Below, piece by piece: positions 1,948 to 19,756 of a DNA stretch of 64,000 nt. Position numbers and translations under genes: made by a program. The notes under the pieces are model-generated. The model was not told where the DNA came from, did no database searches, and saw only the letters and a list, made by a program, of their open reading frames with translations. The stretch is from Escherichia coli. GTDB taxonomy: Bacteria; Pseudomonadota; Gammaproteobacteria; Enterobacterales; Enterobacteriaceae. The stretch lies in assembly GCF_041248615.1 (NCBI RefSeq), contig NZ_CP158426.1, one strand, 5' to 3'. The first letter of the stretch is position 1. Every line of letters begins with the position of its first letter.

Positions 1948-2323
1948 GGGTGACTCTGAATAAGGATTAAACCTCTATGATAGGTAACCTGAAGGCTGAT
2001 GACCAGCAGGCCGTTTTTGAGGAAAAACCACAATTTTAAAAGGGGATTGAAAGATAAATGGTGTATTAGCAATGCATCTCTTGATAATGCACATCTGCTT
2101 GGTAAATTTATTGAAATTATAATGTTAATAAAATGAGTGGTAATTTTCTTGTTAGCGCAGATAAATTTCCTGTTTTTGAAGTGGAGTTCCTCATTTAAAG
2201 CGATTGATAAAAATGTTCTAAAACGCTGGACAGACAGAAATTAATCAGGCTATTTTCAAAACAGCCACCATCGTGGCAGCGTCGCTCGGACGGTCCGGGC
2301 GCTAACGTTAATCTGAGGAAATT

Positions 2324-3562
2324 ATGGCTGACACTCGCCCTGAACGTCGCTTTACGCGCATTGATCGTCTCCCGCCCTACGTTTTTAATATTACCGCTGA
2401 ACTGAAAATGGCTGCGCGTCGGCGCGGCGAAGATATTATCGATTTCAGTATGGGTAACCCGGACGGTGCGACTCCGCCGCACATCGTCGAAAAATTATGT
2501 ACTGTGGCCCAGCGCCCGGACACGCATGGTTACTCCACGTCACGCGGCATTCCGCGGCTACGTCGCGCCATTTCCCGCTGGTATCAGGATCGCTACGACG
2601 TTGAAATCGACCCGGAATCAGAAGCCATCGTCACTATTGGTTCGAAAGAGGGACTGGCGCATCTGATGCTGGCGACGCTGGATCATGGTGACACGGTGCT
2701 GGTGCCTAATCCAAGCTACCCCATTCATATTTATGGCGCGGTGATTGCAGGGGCGCAGGTACGCTCAGTGCCGCTGGTGGAAGGTGTCGATTTCTTCAAC
2801 GAACTGGAACGCGCCATTCGCGAAAGTTATCCGAAACCGAAGATGATGATCCTCGGCTTCCCGTCGAACCCAACCGCGCAATGCGTGGAACTGGAATTCT
2901 TTGAGAAGGTTGTGGCGCTGGCAAAACGCTACGATGTGCTGGTGGTCCATGACCTGGCCTATGCCGATATCGTCTACGATGGCTGGAAAGCGCCGTCAAT
3001 CATGCAGGTGCCGGGCGCACGCGACGTGGCGGTCGAGTTCTTTACCCTGTCGAAAAGTTACAACATGGCGGGCTGGCGTATCGGCTTTATGGTTGGCAAC
3101 AAAACGCTGGTCAGCGCGTTGGCACGTATTAAAAGCTATCACGATTACGGCACCTTTACGCCGTTGCAGGTGGCAGCGATTGCGGCGCTGGAGGGCGATC
3201 AACAGTGCGTGCGCGACATTGCTGAACAGTACAAACGCCGCCGTGATGTACTGGTAAAAGGGCTGCATGAAGCGGGCTGGATGGTCGAAATGCCGAAGGC
3301 TTCGATGTATGTCTGGGCGAAAATCCCGGAACCGTATGCTGCCATGGGCTCGCTGGAATTTGCCAAGAAGCTGCTGAACGAAGCGAAGGTCTGTGTCTCT
3401 CCGGGGATTGGCTTTGGCGACTACGGCGACACGCATGTTCGCTTTGCACTGATTGAAAACCGCGACCGTATTCGTCAGGCGATTCGTGGAATTAAAGCGA
3501 TGTTCCGTGCCGACAGTTTACTACCCGCCAGCAGCAAACATATTCACGAAAACGCGGAATAA
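2324..3562 (+). CDS. alaC: glutamate-pyruvate aminotransferase AlaC (412 aa)
   Basis: 412-aa [24 protein letters not shown] with class I aminotransferase fold; GAGG Shine-Dalgarno upstream of the ATG. Confidence 0.95.
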
Positions 3563-3581
3563 ACACCATCGCCAGAAATGC

Positions 3582-3610
3582 AAACAGGAGCCAGATGGCT
3601 CCTGTTTTTC
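3582..3610. terminator. intrinsic terminator after alaC, plausibly bidirectional (also downstream of ypdK)
   Basis: Stem caggagcc/ggctcctg with 4-nt loop followed by TTTTT, 20 bp after the alaC stop. Confidence 0.75.
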
Positions 3611-3626
3611 ATTGCACAGTTTGCTT

Positions 3627-3698
3627 TTAGATCATCAGGGCAAAAGTACCGGCCCAAACGATGACCATAAAAGAAATGCCCATAAAGAAATATTTCAC
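3627..3698 (-). CDS. ypdK: 23-aa hydrophobic small membrane protein
   Basis: Minus-strand GTG at 3696-3698 with GGAGAG 8 nt upstream; translation (M)KYFFMGISFMVIVWAGTFALMI then TAA; matches the K-12 small protein YpdK as I recall it. Confidence 0.7.
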   Translation of the reverse strand: MKYFFMGISFMVIVWAGTFALMI

Positions 3699-4052
3699 TT
3701 TACATCTCTCCGCGTAATTACTGTTACGCCTGAATGACTTCATTACACCTGATACAGTGAGTTGACACCGGGCAAAACGACCTTAAAAGTCCTGTATTTT
3801 ACCGTGGGCATCACCCCAGAATTCTGAGCTAAACTGCTCCAGACGGCGCTAATGTACGCCTAAAACTGAAACGAGACAAGAGGCATTTTCTTATTTACTT
3901 TTAGTAACTTACAGGTGTCTCATATCGGCGACAGTTTAATTTCTGACGGTAATAATTAGAGATTCAGCGAAGGAAAAAACTTAAGAAAAAAGCCATAAAA
4001 ACCATGAGGTTATTATGGCTGATTTGAGGAGGGAAAGAGTAAGAGCAGTTTG

Positions 4053-4973
4053 TTAAATGTATAGCGACGATTCTCCCACCGGGCGCGTTTTAAAGCGACG
4101 GTGGATCCAGAGGTACTGCTCCGGTGCGCGCATGATCTCTTTTTCGATAATCTTGTTCATATAGGCAGCGGCTTGATTTTCATCTGCCGGGTAGCCTTCC
4201 ATCTCTGGGGTGATGTACAAACGATATCCGCTGTAATCCGCTTTTCTTACCATCGTTACGGTTAACATGGCTGCGCCAGAGAGACGTGAAAGGACATACG
4301 TACCATTGGTTGTGGCGACATTTTCCACCGCAAAGAACGGCGCGAAGGAGCTGCCTTTACGACCATAATCCTGATCGGGAGCAAACCATACCGCTTCACC
4401 TTTCTTCAGTGCACCGACAATGCCGCGCAGATTATTTCTGCCGATCATCGCTTTGTTAGAGCGCATGCGCCCACGGGTCTGCACCCATTCCATCAGCTGA
4501 TTATTATGTGGACGATAGGTAGCCATCATTGGTTGGCACAGTCCCATCACGCGGCCGCCCAGTTCCAGCGACATAAAATGGACGCCGACAACCATTACGC
4601 CGCGATTTTGCATTTGTGCGCGTTTAAGGTTATCCAACCCTTCAACATCAAACCATTTACGTACGCGACTGTCGGGCCAGAACCACGCCATGCCGGTTTC
4701 TACCAGCGCCATGCCGAGTGAACGAAAGTTTTCGGCAATCATCTTCTCGCGTTCTTCCGCAGAATGCTGTGGGAAACAAAGTTCCAGGTTTTTACGGGCG
4801 ATAGATTCACGCCGTTTCAGGAATGGTCGCGCCATTGCGCCAATACGCGTGCCGAGAAAGCAGAGAACAGGATAAGGAAGCTGTACCCAAAGCCAGAGTA
4901 CACCAAGCCCAAACCACGTGAGCCAGTAGCGAGGATGCAGAAACTCGCGGGAAAATTTGCATTTTGGAAACAT
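4053..4973 (-). CDS. lpxP: lipid A palmitoleoyl-ACP acyltransferase (cold-induced), 306 aa
   Basis: ORF 4053-5039; product begins MFPKCKFSREFLHPRYWLTWFGLG at the internal ATG (4971-4973), matching the LpxP/LpxL family; the longer upstream start is rejected. Confidence 0.9.
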   Translation of the reverse strand: MFPKCKFSREFLHPRYWLTWFGLGVLWLWVQLPYPVLCFLGTRIGAMARPFLKRRESIARKNLELCFPQHSAEEREKMIAENFRSLGMALVETGMAWFWPDSRVRKWFDVEGLDNLKRAQMQNRGVMVVGVHFMSLELGGRVMGLCQPMMATYRPHNNQLMEWVQTRGRMRSNKAMIGRNNLRGIVGALKKGEAVWFAPDQDYGRKGSSFAPFFAVENVATTNGTYVLSRLSGAAMLTVTMVRKADYSGYRLYITPEMEGYPADENQAAAYMNKIIEKEIMRAPEQYLWIHRRFKTRPVGESSLYI

Positions 4974-5325
4974 AGTTACCTTCTGTAGATACGAATTGTT
5001 GTATCGCAGAAGATTCCATGTCGACAGCGGTACACTCAATTGATTAGGCCATCATGTACGACAATGGTTCCTGTAAAGAGTGTAAAGACTAGTCAGGACA
5101 TAACCACGAGGAGCATGAATGCGGTATCTGTACTTTATCACTCGCTGACTGCTTTCAGCTACTGATTATTAATCGTGCAAAGTAAATATTTTTCCGTACG
5201 CAACAGTCTTGCATTTAACATGCTGTTTTCATTGATGCTTAGCAAAAATTGCCAGAGGTTAAGGATTGTCTTACTATTAAAGTGACTGAAGTTACAGGTT
5301 TTTTAGCGCGGCAGGAGGTTGAGCT

Positions 5326-5568
5326 ATGATTTATTTATGGATGTTTCTCGCCCTGTGTATTGTCTGCGTAAGCGGATACATCGGTCAGGTACTGAACGTG
5401 GTATCGGCGGTCTCTTCTTTCTTCGGCATGGTGATCCTCGCTGCACTCATTTATTACTTCACCATGTGGTTAACTGGCGGTAATGAACTGGTGACGGGGA
5501 TATTTATGTTTCTTGCCCCGGCTTGTGGCTTGATGATTCGCTTTATGGTGGGATATGGCAGGCGGTAG
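5326..5568 (+). CDS. yfdY: 80-aa small membrane protein YfdY
   Basis: 80-aa ORF with two predicted TM helices; GGAGG Shine-Dalgarno (5310-5314) upstream; position between lpxP and ypdI as in K-12. Confidence 0.8.
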   Translation: MIYLWMFLALCIVCVSGYIGQVLNVVSAVSSFFGMVILAALIYYFTMWLTGGNELVTGIFMFLAPACGLMIRFMVGYGRR

Positions 5569-5644
5569 TGGGTCAGGATGGCTCATTTGGGCAGGTGTTC
5601 ACATCAGCATCAGACATGATTGTTCACCTGCCGTGTGACAGACG

Positions 5645-5877
5645 CTATCGCACAGGATGGATAAGATAATTCGCCTTTGTCGGAAAAGGGGGCGGAATTT
5701 CTTCTGTGAGGTTTAATGGTGGCGCATCTTCTCTCATTTTTAACAAAATCGCCTGTGATGGCTGAAATTTTGTAGAGTGAGTTGTCGTCATCGCTGACGT
5801 TTTTTCCGTCTCTTTATAGCTCGTCTCACTTCCACCACCAGAAATGGAAAATGCAAAAACATTGCATGCCATAATAG
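5645..5877 (-). pseudogene. ypdI: ypdI lipoprotein gene remnant, 5' end and promoter removed at the IS1 boundary
   Basis: Minus-strand ORF encodes ...MACNVFAFSISGGGSE... with the candidate lipobox Cys at residue 3 of the remaining frame, so a signal peptide is missing; frame runs directly into the IS1 left end at 5878. Confidence 0.6.
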
Positions 5878-5932
5878 GGTGATGCTGCCAACTTACTGAT
5901 TTAGTGTATGATGGTGTTTTTGAGGTGCTCCA

Positions 5933-6208
5933 GTGGCTTCTGTTTCTATCAGCTGTCCCTCCTGTTCAGCTACTGACGGGGTGGTGCGTAACGGCAAAAG
6001 CACCGCCGGACATCAGCGCTATCTCTGCTCTCACTGCCGTAAAACATGGCAACTGCAGTTCACTTACACCGCTTCTCAACCCGGTACGCACCAGAAAATC
6101 ATTGATATGGCCATGAATGGCGTTGGATGCCGGGCAACCGCCCGCATTATGGGCGTTGGCCTCAACACGATTTTCCGCCATTTAAAAAACTCAGGCCGCA
6201 GTCGGTAA
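5933..6208 (+). CDS. insA: IS1 InsA (91 aa, transposition repressor / N-terminal part of the transposase)
   Basis: [43 protein letters not shown] with zinc-finger cysteines. Confidence 0.97.
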
Positions 6209-6630
6209 CCTCGCGCATACAGCCGGGCAGTGACGTCATCGTCTGCGCGGAAATGGACGAACAGTGGGGATACGTCGGGGCTAAATCGCGCCAGCGCTGG
6301 CTGTTTTACGCGTATGACAGGCTCCGGAAGACGGTTGTTGCGCACGTATTCGGTGAACGCACTATGGCGACGCTGGGGCGTCTTATGAGCCTGCTGTCAC
6401 CCTTTGACGTGGTGATATGGATGACGGATGGCTGGCCGCTGTATGAATCCCGCCTGAAGGGAAAGCTGCACGTAATCAGCAAGCGATATACGCAGCGAAT
6501 TGAGCGGCATAACCTGAATCTGAGGCAGCACCTGGCACGGCTGGGACGGAAGTCGCTGTCGTTCTCAAAATCGGTGGAGCTGCATGACAAAGTCATCGGG
6601 CATTATCTGAACATAAAACACTATCAATAA
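6127..6630 (+). CDS. insB: IS1 InsB frame (transposase C-terminal part; InsAB' is made by -1 frameshift)
   Basis: 167-aa ORF in the -1 frame overlapping the insA 3' end; slippery AAAAAAC at 6184-6190. Confidence 0.95.
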
Positions 6631-6645
6631 GTTGGAGTCATTACC

Positions 6646-7222
6646 TAATGCATTAAGTGCTGTGCGCGATGTATTGCGCGAGAACCAGGATATTTATTTA
6701 GTTAATGAAGGTGCAAATACCCTGGATAATGCACGAAATATTATTGATATGTATAAACCACGTCGCCGTCTGGATTGTGGTACCTGGGGTGTCATGGGCA
6801 TCGGTATGGGCTATGCCATCGGTGCTAGCGTGACCTCTGGTTCTCCGGTTGTCGCCATTGAAGGTGATAGTGCTTTTGGTTTCAGTGGGATGGAGATTGA
6901 AACGATTTGTCGATATAACCTGCCGGTGACGATCGTTATTTTTAATAATGGCGGCATTTACAGAGGAGACGGTGTTGATCTCAGTGGCGCTGGTGCACCA
7001 TCACCAACGGATCTGCTGCACCATGCAAGGTATGACAAATTAATGGATGCGTTTCGTGGCGTTGGCTATAACGTCACTACGACAGATGAACTTCGTCATG
7101 CTTTAACCACCGGTATTCAGTCGCGCAAACCGACCATTATTAATGTGGTCATCGACCCTGCAGCAGGAACTGAAAGTGGCCATATTACCAAACTTAACCC
7201 AAAACAAGTCGCTGGTAATTAA
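6646..7222 (+). pseudogene. oxc: oxalyl-CoA decarboxylase, 3' fragment only (C-terminal ~190 of ~564 aa)
   Basis: Frame right after the IS1 right end encodes [58 protein letters not shown]...GDSAFGFSG, a thiamine-diphosphate-binding C-terminal domain; no N-terminal or middle domain present. Confidence 0.85.
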
Positions 7223-7290
7223 ATACTGACATCGTCTCCTCTTGCCAACTCATTATCGATGGTGAGGGGACCCTTATCGGAAATACTATT

Positions 7291-8235
7291 ATGCTAACAT
7301 TTTTTATTGGCGATTTATTGCCTATTATCGTAATCATGCTGTTGGGTTATTTTAGCGGCAGACGAGAAACTTTTTCAGAAGATCAAGCCCGGGCATTTAA
7401 TAAACTGGTATTAAACTACGCTCTTCCTGCGGCCCTATTTGTTTCTATTACCCGGGCAAACAGGGAAATGATTTTTGCGGACACTCGCCTGACCCTTGTA
7501 TCACTTGTGGTTATTGTCGGATGTTTCTTTTTCTCCTGGTTTGGTTGCTACAAATTTTTTAAACGTACTCATGCAGAAGCAGCAGTATGTGCATTAATTG
7601 CAGGTTCACCTACCATCGGATTCCTGGGATTTGCAGTTCTCGATCCTATTTATGGTGATTCCGTATCAACAGGTTTAGTTGTAGCAATTATTTCTATTAT
7701 TGTTAACGCAATTACTATTCCTATTGGTCTGTATTTGCTGAATCCTTCCTCAGGAGCAGATGGTAAGAAGAATAGTAATCTGAGCGCATTAATTTCTGCG
7801 GCAAAGGAGCCAGTAGTATGGGCACCTGTTCTGGCAACGATCCTGGTGTTGGTTGGGGTAAAAATTCCGGCAGCATGGGACCCAACCTTTAATCTGATTG
7901 CGAAGGCTAACTCAGGGGTAGCGGTATTCGCTGCGGGGTTGACTCTGGCTGCACATAAATTCGAGTTCAGTGCTGAAATTGCTTATAACACCTTCCTGAA
8001 GCTGATTCTGATGCCACTGGCGCTGCTTCTCGTGGGTATGGCATGTCATTTGAACAGCGAACATTTGCAGATGATGGTACTGGCAGGCGCCTTACCGCCG
8101 GCATTCTCCGGAATCATTATTGCCAGCCGGTTTAATGTCTACACCCGCACTGGTACAGCATCATTGGCTGTGAGCGTACTGGGCTTTGTCGTCACGGCTC
8201 CTTTGTGGATTTATGTCAGTCGACTGGTTTCATAA
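7291..8235 (+). CDS. yfdV: AEC-family membrane transporter YfdV (314 aa)
   Basis: 314-aa polytopic membrane ORF downstream of the oxc fragment. Confidence 0.9.
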
Positions 8236-8263
8236 TTAATCATGTTATTGATTTTACATAAAT

Positions 8264-8294
8264 GCCGAAGTGTCTTTTCACCTTCGGCTTTTTT
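8264..8294 (+). terminator. intrinsic terminator between yfdV and yfdE
   Basis: Stem gccgaag(tg)/(ca)ccttcggc followed by TTTTTT. Confidence 0.65.
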
Positions 8295-8308
8295 CAAGGC
8301 ATAAGCAA

Positions 8309-9454
8309 ATGACAAATAATGAATGCAAAGGGCCGTTTGAAGGCTTATTAGTTATCGATATGACACATGTCCTTAATGGACCTTTCGGAACTCAACTTCT
8401 TTGTAATATGGGCGCAAGGGTAATTAAAGTTGAGCCGCCGGGTCATGGTGATGATACCCGCACATTTGGTCCCTATGTGGATGGGCAGTCACTCTATTAC
8501 AGTTTTATTAATCATGGCAAAGAGAGTGTGGTTCTTGATTTAAAGAATGCTCACGATAAAAGTATATTTATAAATATGCTTAAACAAGCTGATGTATTAG
8601 CTGAGAATTTTCGCCCAGGTACAATGGAAAAACTGGGGTTTTCATGGGAAAGGTTACAAGAAATCAACCCGCGCCTCATCTATGCTTCATCGTCGGGTTT
8701 CGGGCATACCGGTCCGTTAAAAGATGCTCCTGCCTACGATACCATTATTCAGGCAATGAGCGGGATAATGATGGAAACAGGGTACCCTGATGCTCCTCCA
8801 GTGCGTGTTGGTACCTCTCTTGCGGATCTATGCGGCGGTGTCTATTTATTCAGCGGAATAGTGAGTGCACTTTATGGTCGCGAAAAGAGCCAGAGAGGGG
8901 CGCATGTCGATATAGCGATGTTTGATGCCACGCTGAGTTTTCTGGAGCATGGTCTGATGGCATATATTGCGACAGGGAAGTCACCACAACGCCTGGGAAA
9001 TCGCCATCCCTACATGGCACCTTTTGATGTTTTTGATACTCAGGATAAGCCGATTACGATTTGTTGTGGTAATGACAAGCTTTTTTCTGCGTTATGCCAG
9101 GCACTGGAGCTTACAGAACTGGTTGATGATCCCCGATTTATCAGCAATATTTTACGCGTACAAAACCAGGCTATTCTTAAACAATATATTGAGCGGACGT
9201 TAAAAACACAGGCAGCTGAAGTTTGGTTAGCCAGAATACATGAAGTTGGTGTACCCGTAGCGCCGTTATTAAGTGTGGCTGAGGCCATTAATTTGCCACA
9301 AACTCAGGCGAGAAATATGTTGATTGAAGCCGGGGGAATAATGATGCCGGGTAATCCGATAAAAATCAGCGGCTGCGCGGACCCGCATGTTATGCCGGGA
9401 GCGGCAACGCTCGACCAGCATGGGGAACAAATTCGCCAGGAATTCTCATCGTAA
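8309..9454 (+). CDS. yfdE: family III CoA-transferase (acetyl-CoA:oxalate CoA-transferase), 381 aa
   Basis: ORF 8270-9454; product begins MTNNECKGPFEGLLVIDMTHVLNGPFGTQLL at the internal ATG 8309, CaiB/BaiF-type fold. Confidence 0.88.
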   Translation: MTNNECKGPFEGLLVIDMTHVLNGPFGTQLLCNMGARVIKVEPPGHGDDTRTFGPYVDGQSLYYSFINHGKESVVLDLKNAHDKSIFINMLKQADVLAENFRPGTMEKLGFSWERLQEINPRLIYASSSGFGHTGPLKDAPAYDTIIQAMSGIMMETGYPDAPPVRVGTSLADLCGGVYLFSGIVSALYGREKSQRGAHVDIAMFDATLSFLEHGLMAYIATGKSPQRLGNRHPYMAPFDVFDTQDKPITICCGNDKLFSALCQALELTELVDDPRFISNILRVQNQAILKQYIERTLKTQAAEVWLARIHEVGVPVAPLLSVAEAINLPQTQARNMLIEAGGIMMPGNPIKISGCADPHVMPGAATLDQHGEQIRQEFSS

Positions 9455-9475
9455 ATTAAGATGTGCTGGTAAATA

Positions 9476-9502
9476 GCTCCCACATTTGAACATTGTGGGA
9501 GC
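9476..9502. terminator. stem-loop between convergent yfdE and evgS, likely bidirectional terminator
   Basis: gctcccaca / tgtgggagc inverted repeat with 9-nt loop, between the two stop codons. Confidence 0.5.
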
Positions 9503-9508
9503 CGCTAT

Positions 9509-12500
9509 TTAGTCATTTTGTTGACAGAAAACAGCAATCTCCTGGTCCAGCTCTGCAATGTGTTCTTTAACAGAGTTCAGCAGCTGAAGAATTTCAGGCT
9601 TACTGTCATCTGAAACAGGTGTTATTTCTAACTGATGGCTAATATTAATCAACTTTTGCAAATTCAGGATGTTAGCCGCACCGTGGATGCGATGAATACA
9701 CTGATGGAAAGTTCTGTTGTCGCCAGCTTCTAGTGCATGAAACGCAGCGGGTAGATCTTTATGCGTTTCATGCTGGAAAGTCATGAGAATCTCCTGCATC
9801 AGTTGTAGATCGTTCGCCGTATTATTTTTCAGGGCCTCGATATCAAGGTGGCGATACTGAGGTGCAATAGGCGCAACCTGGTGTAACTGACTTAAATGTG
9901 TTTTCATTACATCCAGGGTCAACGGTTTGAACAAACATAAGTTCATGCCGTAATTTAACCCTTTTTCACGTTCGTTAGCCTGTGCGTTGGCTGTAAGCCC
10001 CCAGATGGGTAAGGAAGAATTTTGCTCACGGAGTTTGCGAGTCAACTCAAAACCATCCATATTCGGCATATTAACGTCAGTAATAAGCAGATCATAATGT
10101 TGCATACTGACTTTGTGTAGCGCTTGCACACCATCAGTTGCTTCATCAACATCATATCCTAATAGGTTTAGCTGGCGTTTGAGTAATAGCCTGTTGGTCG
10201 GATGATCATCCGCGATTAATATGCTCAACTTTTCAGGGAGTGTCATGGGTTGTTCTGCTTTTGCCTCGACAGTCGCCACTTGTTGGGTAATTTCTACCGG
10301 GATTGTGATCGTAAATGTCGTTCCTATGCCTGGATGACTTTCTAATGACAAATCGCCCTGCATGTTTTTAATTAATTCTTTGCAGATCATTAAGCCTAAA
10401 CCAGAACCTGTTTGCTGACGACCTGCACTTGTTTGGCTATAGCGTTTAAACAGTTGTTGTTGTTCTTCCTGTGATAATCCACTTCCAGAATCCATAATCG
10501 TCATTTTGATTACAGCGTGGTTGTCATCAATGTTAACCAGGGAGGTCGTAATTTTTACTGCCCCCTCGGTGGTAAATTTGAGAGCATTGCTCAGTAAATT
10601 AGATAAGACCTGCTTAAACGCCTGAGGGTCGATCTTAACCAGGTAATGTTCAGGAAACGTACTGCTGCAACTTAATGCGATCGATTTGCTTGCAGCAATC
10701 GCACCGAAAGAGTGACAAGTGTTCTGGACTAAAGTAGGGATATCGACCCATTGTGGTTGAAGTTGATAGTTACCCGACTCAATTTTGTCGACATCAAGGA
10801 TTTCACCAATTAAGCCGAGGAGTGATTGTCCGGTGGCGTAGGCAAGTGAAATCGCCTCCACCCGTTGCTCCTTGCTAAGACCAGAACCCGACAGAAGTTC
10901 CAGGAAGCCCATAATGGAGCTTATTGGTGTTCTTATTTCGTGACTCATTGTTGCCAGAAACTGGCTTTTTGCGACAGTTGCATTGATCGCTTTATTTCTC
11001 TCTACTTCGAGTGCATGAATTAAATCACGCGTCTCGGTAATATCTTGCCAACCACAAATATAAACAGCATGATCGCTGGCTGGCAGATTGCATAATGTAT
11101 GCCAGTGATTAATGCATCTTTTCTCTATGCCATTATCAATTTCAAATACCTGTGTGTATATTGTTCGATTTTCTTTCGTTTCTGCTGTGACTTCATGCGC
11201 ATTAGAAAAAACATCTTTAAAGGGTGAGTCACTGTTTTCTAATGGTAACATTGCATTTTTGTAGTAATCCGCAGTGAAATAATGTTCAAAAGCACTATTA
11301 TGACTAATGACATTACCTTGCCAGTTTACAACATAAGTTGGATTCGGTAAGGAATCCGAGAGTGCTTTTCGGAATGATATTTGGTTTTCTAAATCACCCT
11401 GAATGACTTTACGACGACGAACTGAGCGTAACAGGTAGAATCCCCATAAAAGGCTACTGCCAACTAATAAAACGGATAATGTCGTGACAATATAAAATTG
11501 CTCGCTATAGAGGTCCCATGTGTCAATGGTCACATTGGGCATTTTAATCCATTTTTCCGTCAGGCGCAGAACTTCGCTTGGGGGAATTGCATTCAGAGCT
11601 TTATTAATAATATCCTTAAGTTCCGGTTCTCCGCGAGGAAAAGCGAACGAAAGCGATGCATTCTGAACGCCGGGAATAAGAAAATGATAAAGTTCATTAG
11701 GATAGTAATGGTCGATCATGTAACGTGAATTTAGCTGTGTCGCGACCAGAGCATCAAGTTCACCTTCCTTGACCTTGTGAAATGCAGCGCTGGCGTTATC
11801 GACTTTTATCCACTCTACCTCCGGATACATCTCTTTTAATTGCGAATGCAGCTCATAATAATATGGAATGGCAACTTTCATTCCTTTTTTTAATGTTTGT
11901 TCACTGTCAGGCGCTTTTTGCATGACAAAAACGTAAGGCGTTGTTATGAAGGCTTCAGCAAATAAAACATTATTTTCTCTATCTTCACTATAAATAGCAC
12001 CGGGTAATATATCCCATCCGCCGGGATTCAGCTGTGTTCCAGCATGGATATTGTGTGAAACGGTGATCGGAGAAAAATTTAAACCTGTTTGCAAGGTAAT
12101 AATATTAAGAATATCCCCCATAACGCCCCGAACCGAGCCATTTTCATCCGTCATAGAATAGGGAGGGGAGTAAGGATTTTCCAGCACCTTTAAATCGGGA
12201 TGCTGCTTAATCCACTGTTTTTCATGTTCAGTGAGTTCTAATGGTTTGTTCAGAAAGGCCAGGTTTCCTGTATCAAGCCAATTTTGTGATACTTCATAGC
12301 GAACTTCGTTTGTCAAAGCATCAACAAATCGATTGAGTACTTCATTAAGAACGACAGATTCTTTTCTGGTCAAGAAAAAATTATATTGACGCGGTGAGTT
12401 ATAATATTTCACTACATTTAAGGAGTGAGTGAAATAGCGGGAAATCATACTGCTGGTAATAATGTTACTACCAATAAAGTAATCATTCTGTCCGGCTGAG

Positions 12501-13102
12501 ACGGATGCTAATGCCTGATATAAATTTGTAAAAGAGATAATTGTTGCTTTTGGAAATGATTGATGAATTACCTCGTCTGGAGGGTAATTTGCTACCCGAG
12601 CAATATTTACTGGTTTTGATGAGGTAAGCGGTCTCATTGAATCGTGAAGGGTGGTGACGAGCGCCGGAAAGGTAATTATCAGCGGTTTGGTTGCAGCAAT
12701 GTCATCATTAAGAGGCGGCGAAGCAACTAAATGTGATAACACTATATCGACTTCCCCTTCTGTAAGCGCGTCCATTGCTTTTTGATGATCTGCGTATTCC
12801 CGGAGTGTTAATTTGATATTTAACGCTCTTTTTAAAAGATTTAAATAATCAGCATTAATACCACGAACCCGTTGCTGCGAATCGGTATGCAACAAAGTAG
12901 CCGTTTGGGACTTGTGTACTGCAATCACAAGATTTTTTTTGCTCGCTAACCAACGTAATTCCTTGTTGCTCAGACGTAGTGGATCAAGCGTGACACGGTT
13001 GTTACTACTGATGCCACGATATTCGATGTAATCTTCGTCTGCGAAACTTATGGTCGACCAAAGACCACAACAGAGAAGAATAATATAGGGTAAAAACTTC
13101 AT
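9509..13102 (-). CDS. evgS: hybrid sensor histidine kinase EvgS (1197 aa)
   Basis: 1197-aa ORF: two periplasmic solute-binding-like domains, TM segment, PAS, HisKA/HATPase (SHEIRTP), receiver and HPt domains. Confidence 0.95.
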   Translation of the reverse strand: MKFLPYIILLCCGLWSTISFADEDYIEYRGISSNNRVTLDPLRLSNKELRWLASKKNLVIAVHKSQTATLLHTDSQQRVRGINADYLNLLKRALNIKLTLREYADHQKAMDALTEGEVDIVLSHLVASPPLNDDIAATKPLIITFPALVTTLHDSMRPLTSSKPVNIARVANYPPDEVIHQSFPKATIISFTNLYQALASVSAGQNDYFIGSNIITSSMISRYFTHSLNVVKYYNSPRQYNFFLTRKESVVLNEVLNRFVDALTNEVRYEVSQNWLDTGNLAFLNKPLELTEHEKQWIKQHPDLKVLENPYSPPYSMTDENGSVRGVMGDILNIITLQTGLNFSPITVSHNIHAGTQLNPGGWDILPGAIYSEDRENNVLFAEAFITTPYVFVMQKAPDSEQTLKKGMKVAIPYYYELHSQLKEMYPEVEWIKVDNASAAFHKVKEGELDALVATQLNSRYMIDHYYPNELYHFLIPGVQNASLSFAFPRGEPELKDIINKALNAIPPSEVLRLTEKWIKMPNVTIDTWDLYSEQFYIVTTLSVLLVGSSLLWGFYLLRSVRRRKVIQGDLENQISFRKALSDSLPNPTYVVNWQGNVISHNSAFEHYFTADYYKNAMLPLENSDSPFKDVFSNAHEVTAETKENRTIYTQVFEIDNGIEKRCINHWHTLCNLPASDHAVYICGWQDITETRDLIHALEVERNKAINATVAKSQFLATMSHEIRTPISSIMGFLELLSGSGLSKEQRVEAISLAYATGQSLLGLIGEILDVDKIESGNYQLQPQWVDIPTLVQNTCHSFGAIAASKSIALSCSSTFPEHYLVKIDPQAFKQVLSNLLSNALKFTTEGAVKITTSLVNIDDNHAVIKMTIMDSGSGLSQEEQQQLFKRYSQTSAGRQQTGSGLGLMICKELIKNMQGDLSLESHPGIGTTFTITIPVEITQQVATVEAKAEQPMTLPEKLSILIADDHPTNRLLLKRQLNLLGYDVDEATDGVQALHKVSMQHYDLLITDVNMPNMDGFELTRKLREQNSSLPIWGLTANAQANEREKGLNYGMNLCLFKPLTLDVMKTHLSQLHQVAPIAPQYRHLDIEALKNNTANDLQLMQEILMTFQHETHKDLPAAFHALEAGDNRTFHQCIHRIHGAANILNLQKLINISHQLEITPVSDDSKPEILQLLNSVKEHIAELDQEIAVFCQQND

Positions 13103-13945: not shown

Positions 13946-13963
13946 ATCCTACATGCGTAAGAA
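13946..13963. promoter_or_regulatory. EvgA box (18-bp inverted repeat) in the evgA-emrK divergent region
   Basis: ATCCTACATGCGTAAGAA, i.e. TTCTTACG-CA-TGTAGGAT on the other strand, fits the EvgA consensus TTCYTACA-N2-TGTARGAA as I recall it. Confidence 0.6.
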
Positions 13964-18275: not shown

Positions 18276-18292
18276 AGTACGTCTCTTTGCGC

Positions 18293-18520
18293 TTAGATGA
18301 TAAATGACAGCAGGAATGTGCCCGCCAGAGCGACGACTGAAGCGATAAATGTCGCGGTCGTATAGTATTTAAATGTTTCATTGAGCGTAGCGTCGCAATA
18401 TTGCTTCACCAGCCAGAAAAGCGAGTCCGTAACGATCGTGCAGCCAATCGCACCTGAACCGATAGCAATCGCAATAATTTCCGGGCTGATGTCGGGATAC
18501 AGCGGCAGCACAATGATCCA
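18293..18520 (-). pseudogene. dsdX: dsdX D-serine permease (GntP family), 3' fragment only (~72 codons)
   Basis: Minus-strand frame encodes a GntP-family C-terminal TM segment ...[59 protein letters not shown]; in-frame stop at 18524-18526, no upstream dsdX sequence, cscR begins ~230 bp further on. Confidence 0.8.
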
Positions 18521-18753
18521 TATTTATATTTTCTTCTCCAGATTGGCGATGCCAGTTGGCATGTTTTACCTACTTGCCTACATGGTTACTCGTTGGCGAG
18601 AACAGAGGCGGAATTGGGTACAATTGTCCGGGAATTATTGTTATTTTTTATTGTATTGCCGTGTCGGGTGATAGGGCGTCGAGAATATCGTTGGATCTCG
18701 CCAGTGACGTCTGTTTCTGCTACAGTGCCCGTTTTACGGCAAACGGCTTGGGT

Positions 18754-19749
18754 ATGGCTTCATTAAAGGATGTCGCACGCCTGGCGGGAGTGTCGATGAT
18801 GACAGTCTCCCGGGTGATGCATAATGCAGAATCTGTGCGTCCTGCAACGCGTGATCGCGTATTGCAGGCAATCCAGACCCTGAATTATGTTCCTGATCTT
18901 TCCGCCCGTAAGATGCGCGCTCAAGGACGTAAGCCGTCGACTCTCGCCGTGCTGGCGCAGGACACGGCCACCACTCCTTTCTCTGTTGATATTCTGCTTG
19001 CCATTGAGCAAACCGCCAGCGAGTTCGGCTGGAATAGTTTTTTAATCAATATTTTTTCTGAAGATGACGCTGCCCGCGCGGCACGTCAGCTGCTTGCCCA
19101 CCGTCCGGATGGCATTATCTATACAACAATGGGGCTGCGACATATCACGCTGCCTGAGTCTCTGTATGGTGAAAATATTGTATTGGCGAACTGTGTGGCG
19201 GATGACCCAGCGTTACCCAGTTATATCCCTGATGATTACACTGCACAATATGAATCAACACAGCATTTGCTCGCGGCGGGCTATCGTCAACCGTTATGCT
19301 TCTGGCTACCGGAAAGTGCGTTGGCAACAGGGTATCGTCGGCAGGGATTTGAGCAGGCCTGGCGTGATGCTGGACGAGATCTGGCTGAGGTGAAACAATT
19401 TCACATGGCAACAGGTGATGATCACTACACCGATCTCGCAAGTTTACTCAATGACCACTTCAAATCTGGCAAACCAGATTTTGATGTTCTGATATGTGGT
19501 AACGATCGCGCAGCCTTTGTCGCTTATCAGGTTCTCCTGGCGAAGGGGGTACGTATCCCGCAGGATGTCGCCGTAATGGGCTTTGATAATCTGGTTGGCG
19601 TCGGGCATCTGTTTTTACCGCCGCTGACCACAATTCAGCTTCCACATGACATTATCGGGCGGGAAGCTGCATTGCATATTATTGAAGGTCGTGAAGGGGG
19701 AAGAGTGACGCGGATCCCTTGCCCGCTGTTGATCCGTTGTTCCACCTGA
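18754..19749 (+). CDS. cscR: LacI-family sucrose operon repressor CscR (331 aa)
   Basis: Product begins MASLKDVARLAGVSMMTVSRVMHN (helix-turn-helix) at the internal ATG 18754, followed by a periplasmic-binding-protein-like sugar-binding domain; the longer upstream ORF start is rejected. Confidence 0.9.
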   Translation: MASLKDVARLAGVSMMTVSRVMHNAESVRPATRDRVLQAIQTLNYVPDLSARKMRAQGRKPSTLAVLAQDTATTPFSVDILLAIEQTASEFGWNSFLINIFSEDDAARAARQLLAHRPDGIIYTTMGLRHITLPESLYGENIVLANCVADDPALPSYIPDDYTAQYESTQHLLAAGYRQPLCFWLPESALATGYRRQGFEQAWRDAGRDLAEVKQFHMATGDDHYTDLASLLNDHFKSGKPDFDVLICGNDRAAFVAYQVLLAKGVRIPQDVAVMGFDNLVGVGHLFLPPLTTIQLPHDIIGREAALHIIEGREGGRVTRIPCPLLIRCST

Positions 19750-19756
19750 TATTATG

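Follow-up and report, generated by a model that had tools for sequence, protein, structure and literature searches.

In the 64,000-nt stretch of Escherichia coli DNA analysed here (the window), the genes yfdV and yfdE have been uncoupled from EvgS/EvgA control by an IS1-made deletion, an ordinary case of IS-mediated gene loss. Taken as a whole, the explanation to which we assign a probability of roughly 0.55 is that an IS1 adjacent deletion abolished EvgA control and that the residual transcription of both genes most likely comes from a candidate sigma-70 promoter in the oxc-yfdV spacer. IS1 read-through, which the initial annotation had named as the most likely source, is probably not the main one.

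The locus consists, all on the plus strand, of an intact 768-bp IS1 of the IS1B type (5878-6645), a 577-bp oxc 3' remnant (6646-7222) encoding Oxc residues 374-564 plus the stop codon, a 68-bp spacer, yfdV (7291-8235) and yfdE (8309-9454). Both genes are retained as first annotated, in coordinates as well as in content: yfdV encodes an intact AEC-family transporter of 314 aa identical to the K-12 protein, and yfdE, free of internal stops, encodes an acetyl-CoA:oxalate CoA-transferase (PMC3720670) of 381 aa with seven substitutions relative to K-12. They had been described as lying directly downstream of IS1 and co-oriented with it; the orientation was right, but the oxc remnant and the spacer intervene. 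On the other side of the element, the minus strand carries a ypdI 3' remnant (5645-5877) that keeps 233 of the 276 nt of ypdI in NZ_LT599825.1 (1605645-1605920). It has lost the promoter, the start codon and the first 14 codons (43 nt of the 5' end), and its residual ORF of 75 aa starts at an internal ATG at 5872. An exact-protein match to this truncated YpdI was found in one ENA contig, which begins with a Nextera adapter instead of IS1, and was discarded as a false lead.

The IS1 copy begins with GGTGATGCTGCC and ends with GAGTCATTACC. As in other members of this family of about 768 bp, it is bounded by imperfect terminal inverted repeats (GGTGATGCTGCC... and ...GGAGTCATTACC) and contains two overlapping plus-strand ORFs, insA (5933-6208) and insB' (6127-6630), with the A6C -1 frameshift motif AAAAAAC at 6184. 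Its promoter, CTGCCA-16-TATGAT at 5885-5912, has the hexamers given for insAB-1 in PMC3946193, and the whole element is 100% identical to the copy that the RefSeq record of strain NRZ14408 lists as IS1B. No target-site duplication surrounds it, the left flank ending in CATAATAG and the right flank starting with TAATGCATT, as is expected after an adjacent deletion. Duplications of 9 bp do flank the IS1 copies in ES7, in JNEC-KY203 and in emrK of strain 3359.

The origin of this structure can be read from NRZ14408 (NZ_LT599825.1), to whose positions 1600001-1667671 the window corresponds with zero mismatches, minus 1605878-1609548 (3671 bp). The missing segment runs from the ypdI 5' end (43 nt) through the region between ypdI and yfdX, the yfdX gene, the spacer that separates it from frc, and frc itself into oxc, of which it takes 885 bp. 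NRZ14408 keeps ypdI, yfdX, frc, these 885 bp and both EvgA boxes and thus represents the undeleted parent; across its locus (1605645-1613125) the flanks are 100% identical, the IS1 copy is the same, and so are yfdV and yfdE. The right junction between IS1 and oxc is common to the window and NRZ14408 and occurs in no other complete genome. Already in NRZ14408 the IS1 has no target-site duplication and oxc is short of 234 bp, and the window has lost 3671 bp more at the same IS1 end. An IS-free form of the locus, with 100% identity, is found in NZ_OW967178.1.

The deletion is flush with the left end of the element, window base 5878 being the first base of IS1, and the element itself is retained. 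The finding is structural and raises no question of chance; such an end point at exactly the terminal base marks the deletion as IS1-made. Adjacent deletions reviewed in PMC9330008 likewise keep the IS, start at one of its ends and lose the direct repeat. The window displays the same traits as the classical IS1-mediated adjacent deletions by intramolecular replicative transposition (e.g. IS1/Tn9) with no essential difference, here on the chromosome and in the yfd locus. The IS1 sitting in oxc would thus have made an adjacent deletion leftwards from its own left end, probably by intramolecular transposition, and would have reached an AT-rich IS1 target in the ypdI 5' end; yfdV and yfdE were presumably spared only through lying on the other side of the element.

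Two co-oriented IS1 copies, the one in oxc and one newly inserted in ypdI, could also have undergone homologous recombination, with the same regulatory outcome; like transposition, this route leaves one IS1 without target-site duplication. The ypdI 5' end is indeed a recurrent site of IS1 insertion, independent copies being found 5 to 125 bp from the breakpoint in other genomes, among them one in JNEC-KY203, 5 bp away, which is a simple insertion flanked by a 9-bp duplication (ATAGAGACC), and one in GN02270 about 40 bp away. Nevertheless, the known JNEC-KY203 insertion does not coincide with the window breakpoint, and recombination needs an extra step, since ypdI is free of IS1 in NRZ14408. 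The recombination route and one-step transposition leave products that are inseparable by sequence alone; we consider the former rather unlikely.

Still less probable, and in our view very unlikely, is a non-biological deletion, through faulty assembly, as a minority variant or by editing of the NRZ14408 sequence. Such an origin would fit the fact that, the deletion excepted, the window equals the RefSeq record base for base with a coordinate offset of exactly 1,600,000, and that its left junction is absent from the complete genomes of E. coli searched (5,426). Against it, one breakpoint coincides exactly with the IS1 terminus and the other falls in a known hot spot of IS1 insertion, a pattern that looks like a real IS1 deletion and would be unlikely for a random artefact, and strain FORC_081 independently carries the same kind of product.

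FORC_081 (NZ_CP029057.1), with the order yfdX' - IS1A - 'oxc - yfdV - yfdE, is a near copy of the window layout that arose independently, so that the arrangement IS1 - 'oxc - yfdV - yfdE has arisen at least twice. Here too a co-oriented IS1 made an adjacent deletion, the target-site duplication is absent, frc and the 5' part of oxc are gone, and a 627-bp oxc 3' remnant precedes intact yfdV and yfdE. The two differ in IS1 subtype and in breakpoints, which in FORC_081 lie at nt 321 of yfdX and nt 1069 of oxc; moreover, FORC_081 keeps ypdI intact and retains the EvgA-dependent yfdX promoter, which reads into IS1. That both deletions, each stripping frc and oxc, were selected for an EvgA-independent, IS1-linked expression of YfdV/YfdE serving a role unrelated to oxalate decarboxylation seems extremely improbable. 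Separately, a differential retention of yfdVE versus yfdX-frc-oxc across E. coli was considered and rejected, with 5399 versus 5397 of 5426 genomes.

The loss of EvgA control follows from the position of the deletion. In agreement with the initial annotation, yfdV and yfdE normally belong to EvgA-activated yfdXWUVE and yfdWUVE transcription units, EvgA binding to inverted repeats ahead of both yfdX and yfdW and inducing yfdX and yfdWUVE (PMC3720670). Both EvgA boxes of the locus, upstream of yfdX (L001 7064) and, as a perfect match, upstream of frc (L001 8093), fall within the deleted stretch, and with them went two EvgA-dependent promoters, that of yfdX and that of frc/yfdW. The promoter upstream of yfdX that was first taken to be missing is therefore gone, but it was one of two. 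The EvgA box is reportedly an 18-bp inverted repeat, TTCYTACA-N2-TGTARGAA, in the consensus attributed to Masuda and Church 2003. This consensus gave four matches where 0.28 were expected, each in an intergenic region known to be under EvgA control; the single box left in the window belongs to evgA-emrK (13946), and none is present upstream of yfdV. Compared with the EvgA-activated units of K-12 (yfdXWUVE, or yfdX and yfdWUVE), the window has the same oxc-yfdV-yfdE order, the same spacer and the same terminator-like hairpin, but it is without the promoter-proximal half and without any EvgA site of the locus.

On the earlier view, read-through from IS1 would now be the main source of yfdV and yfdE transcription, an IS1-dependent rewiring; as considered here, this covers both the promoter of the element itself and yfdY transcription crossing it. 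Several features are in line with this proposal. The element is intact and its promoter is co-oriented with both genes. No strong intrinsic terminator was predicted at 6400-7290, where only a weak hairpin (6848-6871) was found, and the terminator-like structures between yfdY and IS1 are only weak. Upstream, yfdY points into IS1 from a constitutive promoter at 5249-5277 (PMC3946193), and lacZ placed after insAB' gives a measurable expression that is raised by upstream read-in (PMC12428005, PMC12903888). This output is however very small: a lacZ fusion on the chromosome, placed immediately behind the insAB' stop codon of a native IS1, yielded some 1.1 units versus 18.5 without InsA, a level that its authors call "extremely low" (PMC12903888), so that the IS1 3' end delivers about 1 LacZ unit under InsA repression. 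In the same way, PMC12428005 characterises the IS1 promoter as extremely weak and subject to autorepression by InsA. A supply of InsA in trans is probable too, since a query containing IS1 matches eight separate places in the NRZ14408 record, a figure that is not a direct count of IS1 copies.

Transcripts leaving IS1 would also have to cross the 577-nt oxc remnant. Within the element, a terminator has been reported (Hubner, Iida and Arber 1987, as cited in PMC12095673). The RNA ahead of yfdV would be mostly untranslated for about 1.1 kb (insB' and the oxc remnant), the remnant having no in-frame start with a Shine-Dalgarno sequence and no credible translation start. Polarity is a classical property of IS1 insertions, in whichever orientation they lie; a literature search on IS1 Rho-dependent polarity gave no result. 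The untranslated remnant, together with a C-rich, G-poor stretch at 7087-7242 upstream of yfdV, would favour Rho-dependent termination. An Rfam scan of 5000-9700 (E<=1) had zero matches, hence no known RNA element in the oxc remnant or the spacers. Given, in addition, the IS1-independent promoter candidate at 7226-7256, read-through as the main source is improbable; transcripts crossing IS1, from its promoter or as yfdY read-in, may amount to a trickle at most, yet not to zero.

An IS1-derived hybrid promoter, also put forward initially, did not hold up. The IS1 fusion promoters mentioned in PMC9330008 include those of blaTEM-1 (Prentki 1986), acrEF (Olliver 2005) and blaTEM-6 (Goussard 1991). 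The window resembles these cases in having IS1 upstream of, and co-oriented with, genes deprived of their own activator-dependent promoter. In those cases, however, the -35 lies in the IS end and a properly spaced -10 in the flank, near the activated gene, whereas here no -35/-10 pair fits the junction between the right inverted repeat and oxc (6632-6670) and yfdV is 645 bp further on. For the hexamer TTGGAG (6632-6637), the positions 6654-6661, i.e. those at a spacing of 16-18 bp, offer no usable -10, and the search for a hybrid promoter gave no plus-strand promoter-like site at 5913-8290.

The spacer between oxc and yfdV offers a better candidate. Genomic SELEX with the RpoD holoenzyme, an in-vitro binding assay on K-12 DNA, places there a constitutive promoter, CTGACA-19-CATTAT (PMC3946193). 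Its hexamers are unchanged in the window, with CTGACA at 7226-7231 and CATTAT at 7251-7256 on the plus strand. It is a weak candidate, with a non-optimal 19-nt spacing and a low SELEX peak (0.04 of the top peak), and the supplement of the same study flags the spacer as H-NS bound (PMC3946193). The candidate lies within 6646-7290, the interval in which a start independent of IS1 had been named as evidence against read-through; it is backed there by in-vitro binding but not by a mapped start, the accessible parts of published start-site datasets (including SMRT-Cappable-seq, Kim 2012 and Cho 2014) containing no usable in-vivo start for yfdV or yfdE. At this locus, only an antisense start inside oxc is present in the data of Mendoza-Vargas 2009, and only an antisense signal in yfdE in those of Adams 2021. 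An RpoH SELEX peak reported 'inside oxc' (PMC5493296) was set aside because its coordinates put it close to where oxc meets frc and not in the 577 bp that remain.

Remaining transcription of yfdV and yfdE would accordingly be that of a weak constitutive sigma-70 promoter in the spacer. yfdE lies further behind a terminator-like hairpin in the yfdV-yfdE spacer (8264-8294, plus strand; GCCGAAGTG...CACCTTCGGC then T6), with a folding energy of about -11 to -12 kcal/mol and a sequence identical to that of K-12.

Another view is that both genes are effectively silent leftovers, their EvgA promoters gone and H-NS covering the AT-rich region, that will decay. The induction known for this operon depends on EvgA (PMC3720670), and the weakness of the spacer promoter and the H-NS flag on the spacer point in the same direction. 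In addition, Frc and Oxc, which are required for the oxalate-induced acid tolerance response (PMC3720670), are deleted, so that the oxalate-decarboxylation pathway served by yfdV/yfdE is broken, and the two genes appear dispensable since strains 3359 and JNEC-KY203 have lost them altogether. Zero mismatches to NRZ14408 over 64 kb imply an event too recent for decay to show, and for this reason the integrity of both ORFs, although it speaks against silence, says little. Against it as well, the RpoD holoenzyme binds the spacer without any activator (PMC3946193). We regard effective silence as rather unlikely, and a low constitutive output from the spacer promoter as the preferred reading.

The isolate has thus lost Frc, Oxc, YfdX and a functional YpdI, and its surviving yfdV and yfdE are outside EvgS/EvgA control. 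As a routine IS1 adjacent deletion, the event has little importance beyond strain annotation, and the locus provides a handy natural setting in which to measure the transcription that leaves a chromosomal IS1. More broadly, it belongs to a repeated erosion of the evgAS-yfd region by IS1 in clinical and animal isolates, which will not surprise the specialist.

From the ORF listing and direct reading of the sequence, the locus in the window was found to begin with yfdY (5326-5568, plus strand) and a shortened ypdI (5645-5877, minus strand), followed by a complete IS1 of 768 bp (5878-6645, plus strand) carrying insA (5933-6208, plus), insB' (6127-6630, plus) and the A6C frameshift motif at 6184. 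A 577-bp oxc remnant (6646-7222, plus), whose translation corresponds to Oxc residues 374-564, and a 68-bp spacer lead to yfdV (7291-8235, plus), itself separated by 73 bp from yfdE (8309-9454, plus), with which evgS (9509-13102) is convergent. YfdV is identical to its K-12 counterpart and YfdE shows 7 substitutions and no stop. The initial annotation was correct as to coordinates and co-orientation of yfdV and yfdE with insA/insB, but the genes do not lie directly downstream of IS1, as 645 bp of oxc remnant and spacer intervene. On the other flank, ypdI, which encodes a colanic acid lipoprotein, has lost its promoter, start codon and codons 1-14, presumably the N-terminal lipoprotein signal region; the leftover ORF of 75 aa starts at an internal ATG.

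Compared with bases 1600001-1667671 of the NRZ14408 record (NZ_LT599825.1), the window shows no mismatch and a constant coordinate offset, one deletion excepted. Record bases 1605878-1609548 (3671 bp) are missing at 5877/5878, so that the source must be a sibling isolate, a variant or subpopulation, or a separate assembly of NRZ14408. Lost with these bases are 43 nt from the 5' end of ypdI, the intergenic region between ypdI and yfdX, yfdX itself, the yfdX-frc spacer of 512 bp, frc (yfdW) and 885 bp from the 5' end of oxc. The deletion ends at the very first base of IS1, and a target-site duplication around the element is lacking. In NRZ14408, the same IS1 copy (10550-11317 in L001, the local coordinates of that locus) already lacks a target-site duplication, as well as 234 bp of oxc beside it (residues 296-373), which points to an earlier small deletion or rearrangement at this element. 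The whole locus is present at 100% identity in an IS-free relative, NZ_OW967178.1.

In the window the IS is kept, the deletion runs right up to its end and the direct repeat has gone, a combination characteristic of an IS1 adjacent deletion by intramolecular transposition (PMC9330008). Recombination between two IS1 copies would give an identical end product and may instead have been the route. The ypdI breakpoint sits within a cluster of IS1 targets comprising the ypdI 5' end and the ypdI-yfdX spacer (about 5870-5880 of the window). In strain JNEC-KY203 (NZ_AP045179.1), a simple insertion lies 5 bp from this breakpoint and has ATAGAGACC as its 9-bp duplication; the insertion of GN02270 is at a distance of about 40 bp, and that of strain 3359 is in the ypdI-yfdX intergenic region. 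IS1 was present in or beside ypdI in 7 of 5426 genomes. In a comparison with 5,426 complete E. coli genomes, NRZ14408 was the only one with the right IS1-oxc junction, and none had the left ypdI-IS1 junction. An ENA metagenome contig (ERZ27238078 k111_1779) was discarded as an instance of the latter, its bases 1-19 being the Nextera adapter AGATGTGTATAAGAGACAG, a contig-end contamination; the adapter meets ypdI at exactly the joining base of IS1 in the window, probably by coincidence. An assembly artefact at the junction was judged very improbable and, artefact aside, the structural part is near certain.

A consensus of the EvgA box, the inverted repeat for EvgA, reportedly as in Masuda and Church 2003, was run on the NRZ14408 locus and on the window. 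The former gave 4 matches where 0.28 were expected: a pair upstream of yfdX, a perfect match ahead of frc and a single one in the evgA-emrK interval. The yfdX pair and the frc match fall within the deleted stretch, and the evgA-emrK box, at 13946, is the sole one left in the window. EvgA activates the yfdXWUVE genes: it binds inverted repeats in front of yfdX and in front of yfdW (frc), and so induces yfdX and yfdWUVE (PMC3720670). This bears out the proposal that yfdV and yfdE were severed from their native EvgA-dependent promoter; a promoter upstream of yfdX was indeed lost, but two such promoters (yfdX and frc) are gone rather than one. The deletion has in this way stripped both genes of EvgA control.

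Read-through from IS1 had been put forward as the likeliest origin of yfdV-yfdE transcripts. The IS1 promoter CTGCCA-16-TATGAT is retained at 5885-5912, with the hexamers listed for insAB-1 (PMC3946193). It is described as extremely weak and as subject to autorepression through InsA (PMC12428005). Chromosomal lacZ placed right after the insAB' stop of native IS1 gave about 1.1 units, against 18.5 without InsA, and insB' is translated on <2% of transcripts (PMC12903888). In NRZ14408, an IS1-containing query matched 8 separate places, a count of matching places and not of IS1 copies; from these matches, several IS1 copies probably supply InsA in trans. IS1 also reportedly contains a transcription terminator (Hubner, Iida and Arber 1987, as cited in PMC12095673). 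No in-frame start with a preceding Shine-Dalgarno was found in the oxc remnant; given also the rare translation of insB', a transcript exiting IS1 would go all but untranslated over about 1.1 kb, and this together with a C-rich, G-poor stretch at 7087-7242 would invite Rho action. IS1 insertions are classically polar in either orientation. As for the suggested IS1-derived hybrid promoter, no fit was found at the IS1-oxc junction. Upstream read-in is able to raise transcription across IS1 (PMC12428005), and between the yfdY promoter (5249-5277) and IS1 only weak terminator-like structures occur; yfdY read-in could add to such transcription but would face the same obstacles. IS1-derived or through-IS1 transcription is therefore quite unlikely to be the main source.

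Genomic SELEX with purified RpoD holoenzyme without activators placed a constitutive promoter, CTGACA-19-CATTAT, in the oxc-yfdV spacer and assigned it to yfdV (PMC3946193). Both hexamers (7226-7231 and 7251-7256) are identical to K-12, and the spacer differs by a 1-nt deletion just past the -10 hexamer. The peak was weak, 0.04 of the strongest and comparable to that of the frc spacer (0.03), and the oxc-yfdV spacer is flagged as H-NS bound in the supplement (PMC3946193). From in vitro binding, it is the best-documented candidate promoter remaining upstream of yfdV. The initial annotation had named a mapped, IS1-independent start between 6646 and 7290 as grounds for rejecting IS1 read-through; the RpoD-bound candidate at 7226-7256 bears directly on this, as in vitro binding rather than as a mapped start. 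IS1 read-through is less likely than transcription from this weak constitutive promoter or near silence. We give a probability of about 0.55 to the combined reading in which an IS1 adjacent deletion took away EvgA control and what transcription remains starts chiefly at the spacer promoter; that yfdV and yfdE are essentially silent leftovers is a possible but less probable reading. Such values are rough and need not sum to one, as the explanations partially overlap.

Within the yfdV-yfdE spacer, a conserved hairpin followed by T6 (8264-8294), identical in K-12, resembles an intrinsic terminator, although the yfdXWUVE genes are supposed to form one operon; if it terminates, even less transcription would reach yfdE. 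In a supplement table of Adams et al. 2021 there is a signal antisense to yfdE at K-12 2488340 (+), about 9100-9200 on the minus strand of the window, which may be transcription from evgS running into yfdE.

Loss at the locus is rare: at a coverage of at least 80%, 5397 complete genomes out of 5426 keep the deleted segment and 5399 keep yfdV-yfdE, figures that show no preference for either half. IS1 strikes the locus repeatedly, co-oriented with the operon in every case examined. In ES7, oxc is interrupted by a simple insertion flanked by a 9-bp duplication, and FORC_081, arranged as yfdX' - IS1 - 'oxc - yfdV - yfdE, is an independent analogue that, unlike the window, keeps the yfdX promoter. 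The three independent right junctions (FORC_081, NRZ14408/window and ES7) lie in about 120 bp (oxc nt 1069-1195), possibly a hot spot for IS1 insertion with a bias in orientation. JNEC-KY203, a clinical isolate, has a second, inverted IS1 after yfdX, joined directly to dsdA. Elsewhere in the window (about 18290-23640; 1964-7309 of the extracted stretch L002), a truncated dsdX-like permease adjoins a sucrose (csc) cluster (LacI-family regulator, cscA, kinase and MFS transporter) just before tRNA-Arg, an arrangement that suggests insertion of an island at the dsd locus.

Larger deletions were also found, from yfdX through most of yfdE in strain 3359 and from frc through emrY in JNEC-KY203 (frc, oxc, yfdV, yfdE, evgS, evgA, emrK and emrY). 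Since some strains have lost both, yfdV and yfdE are dispensable. The deletion in the window is a routine IS1 adjacent deletion, which costs the EvgA regulon the function of its oxalate branch.
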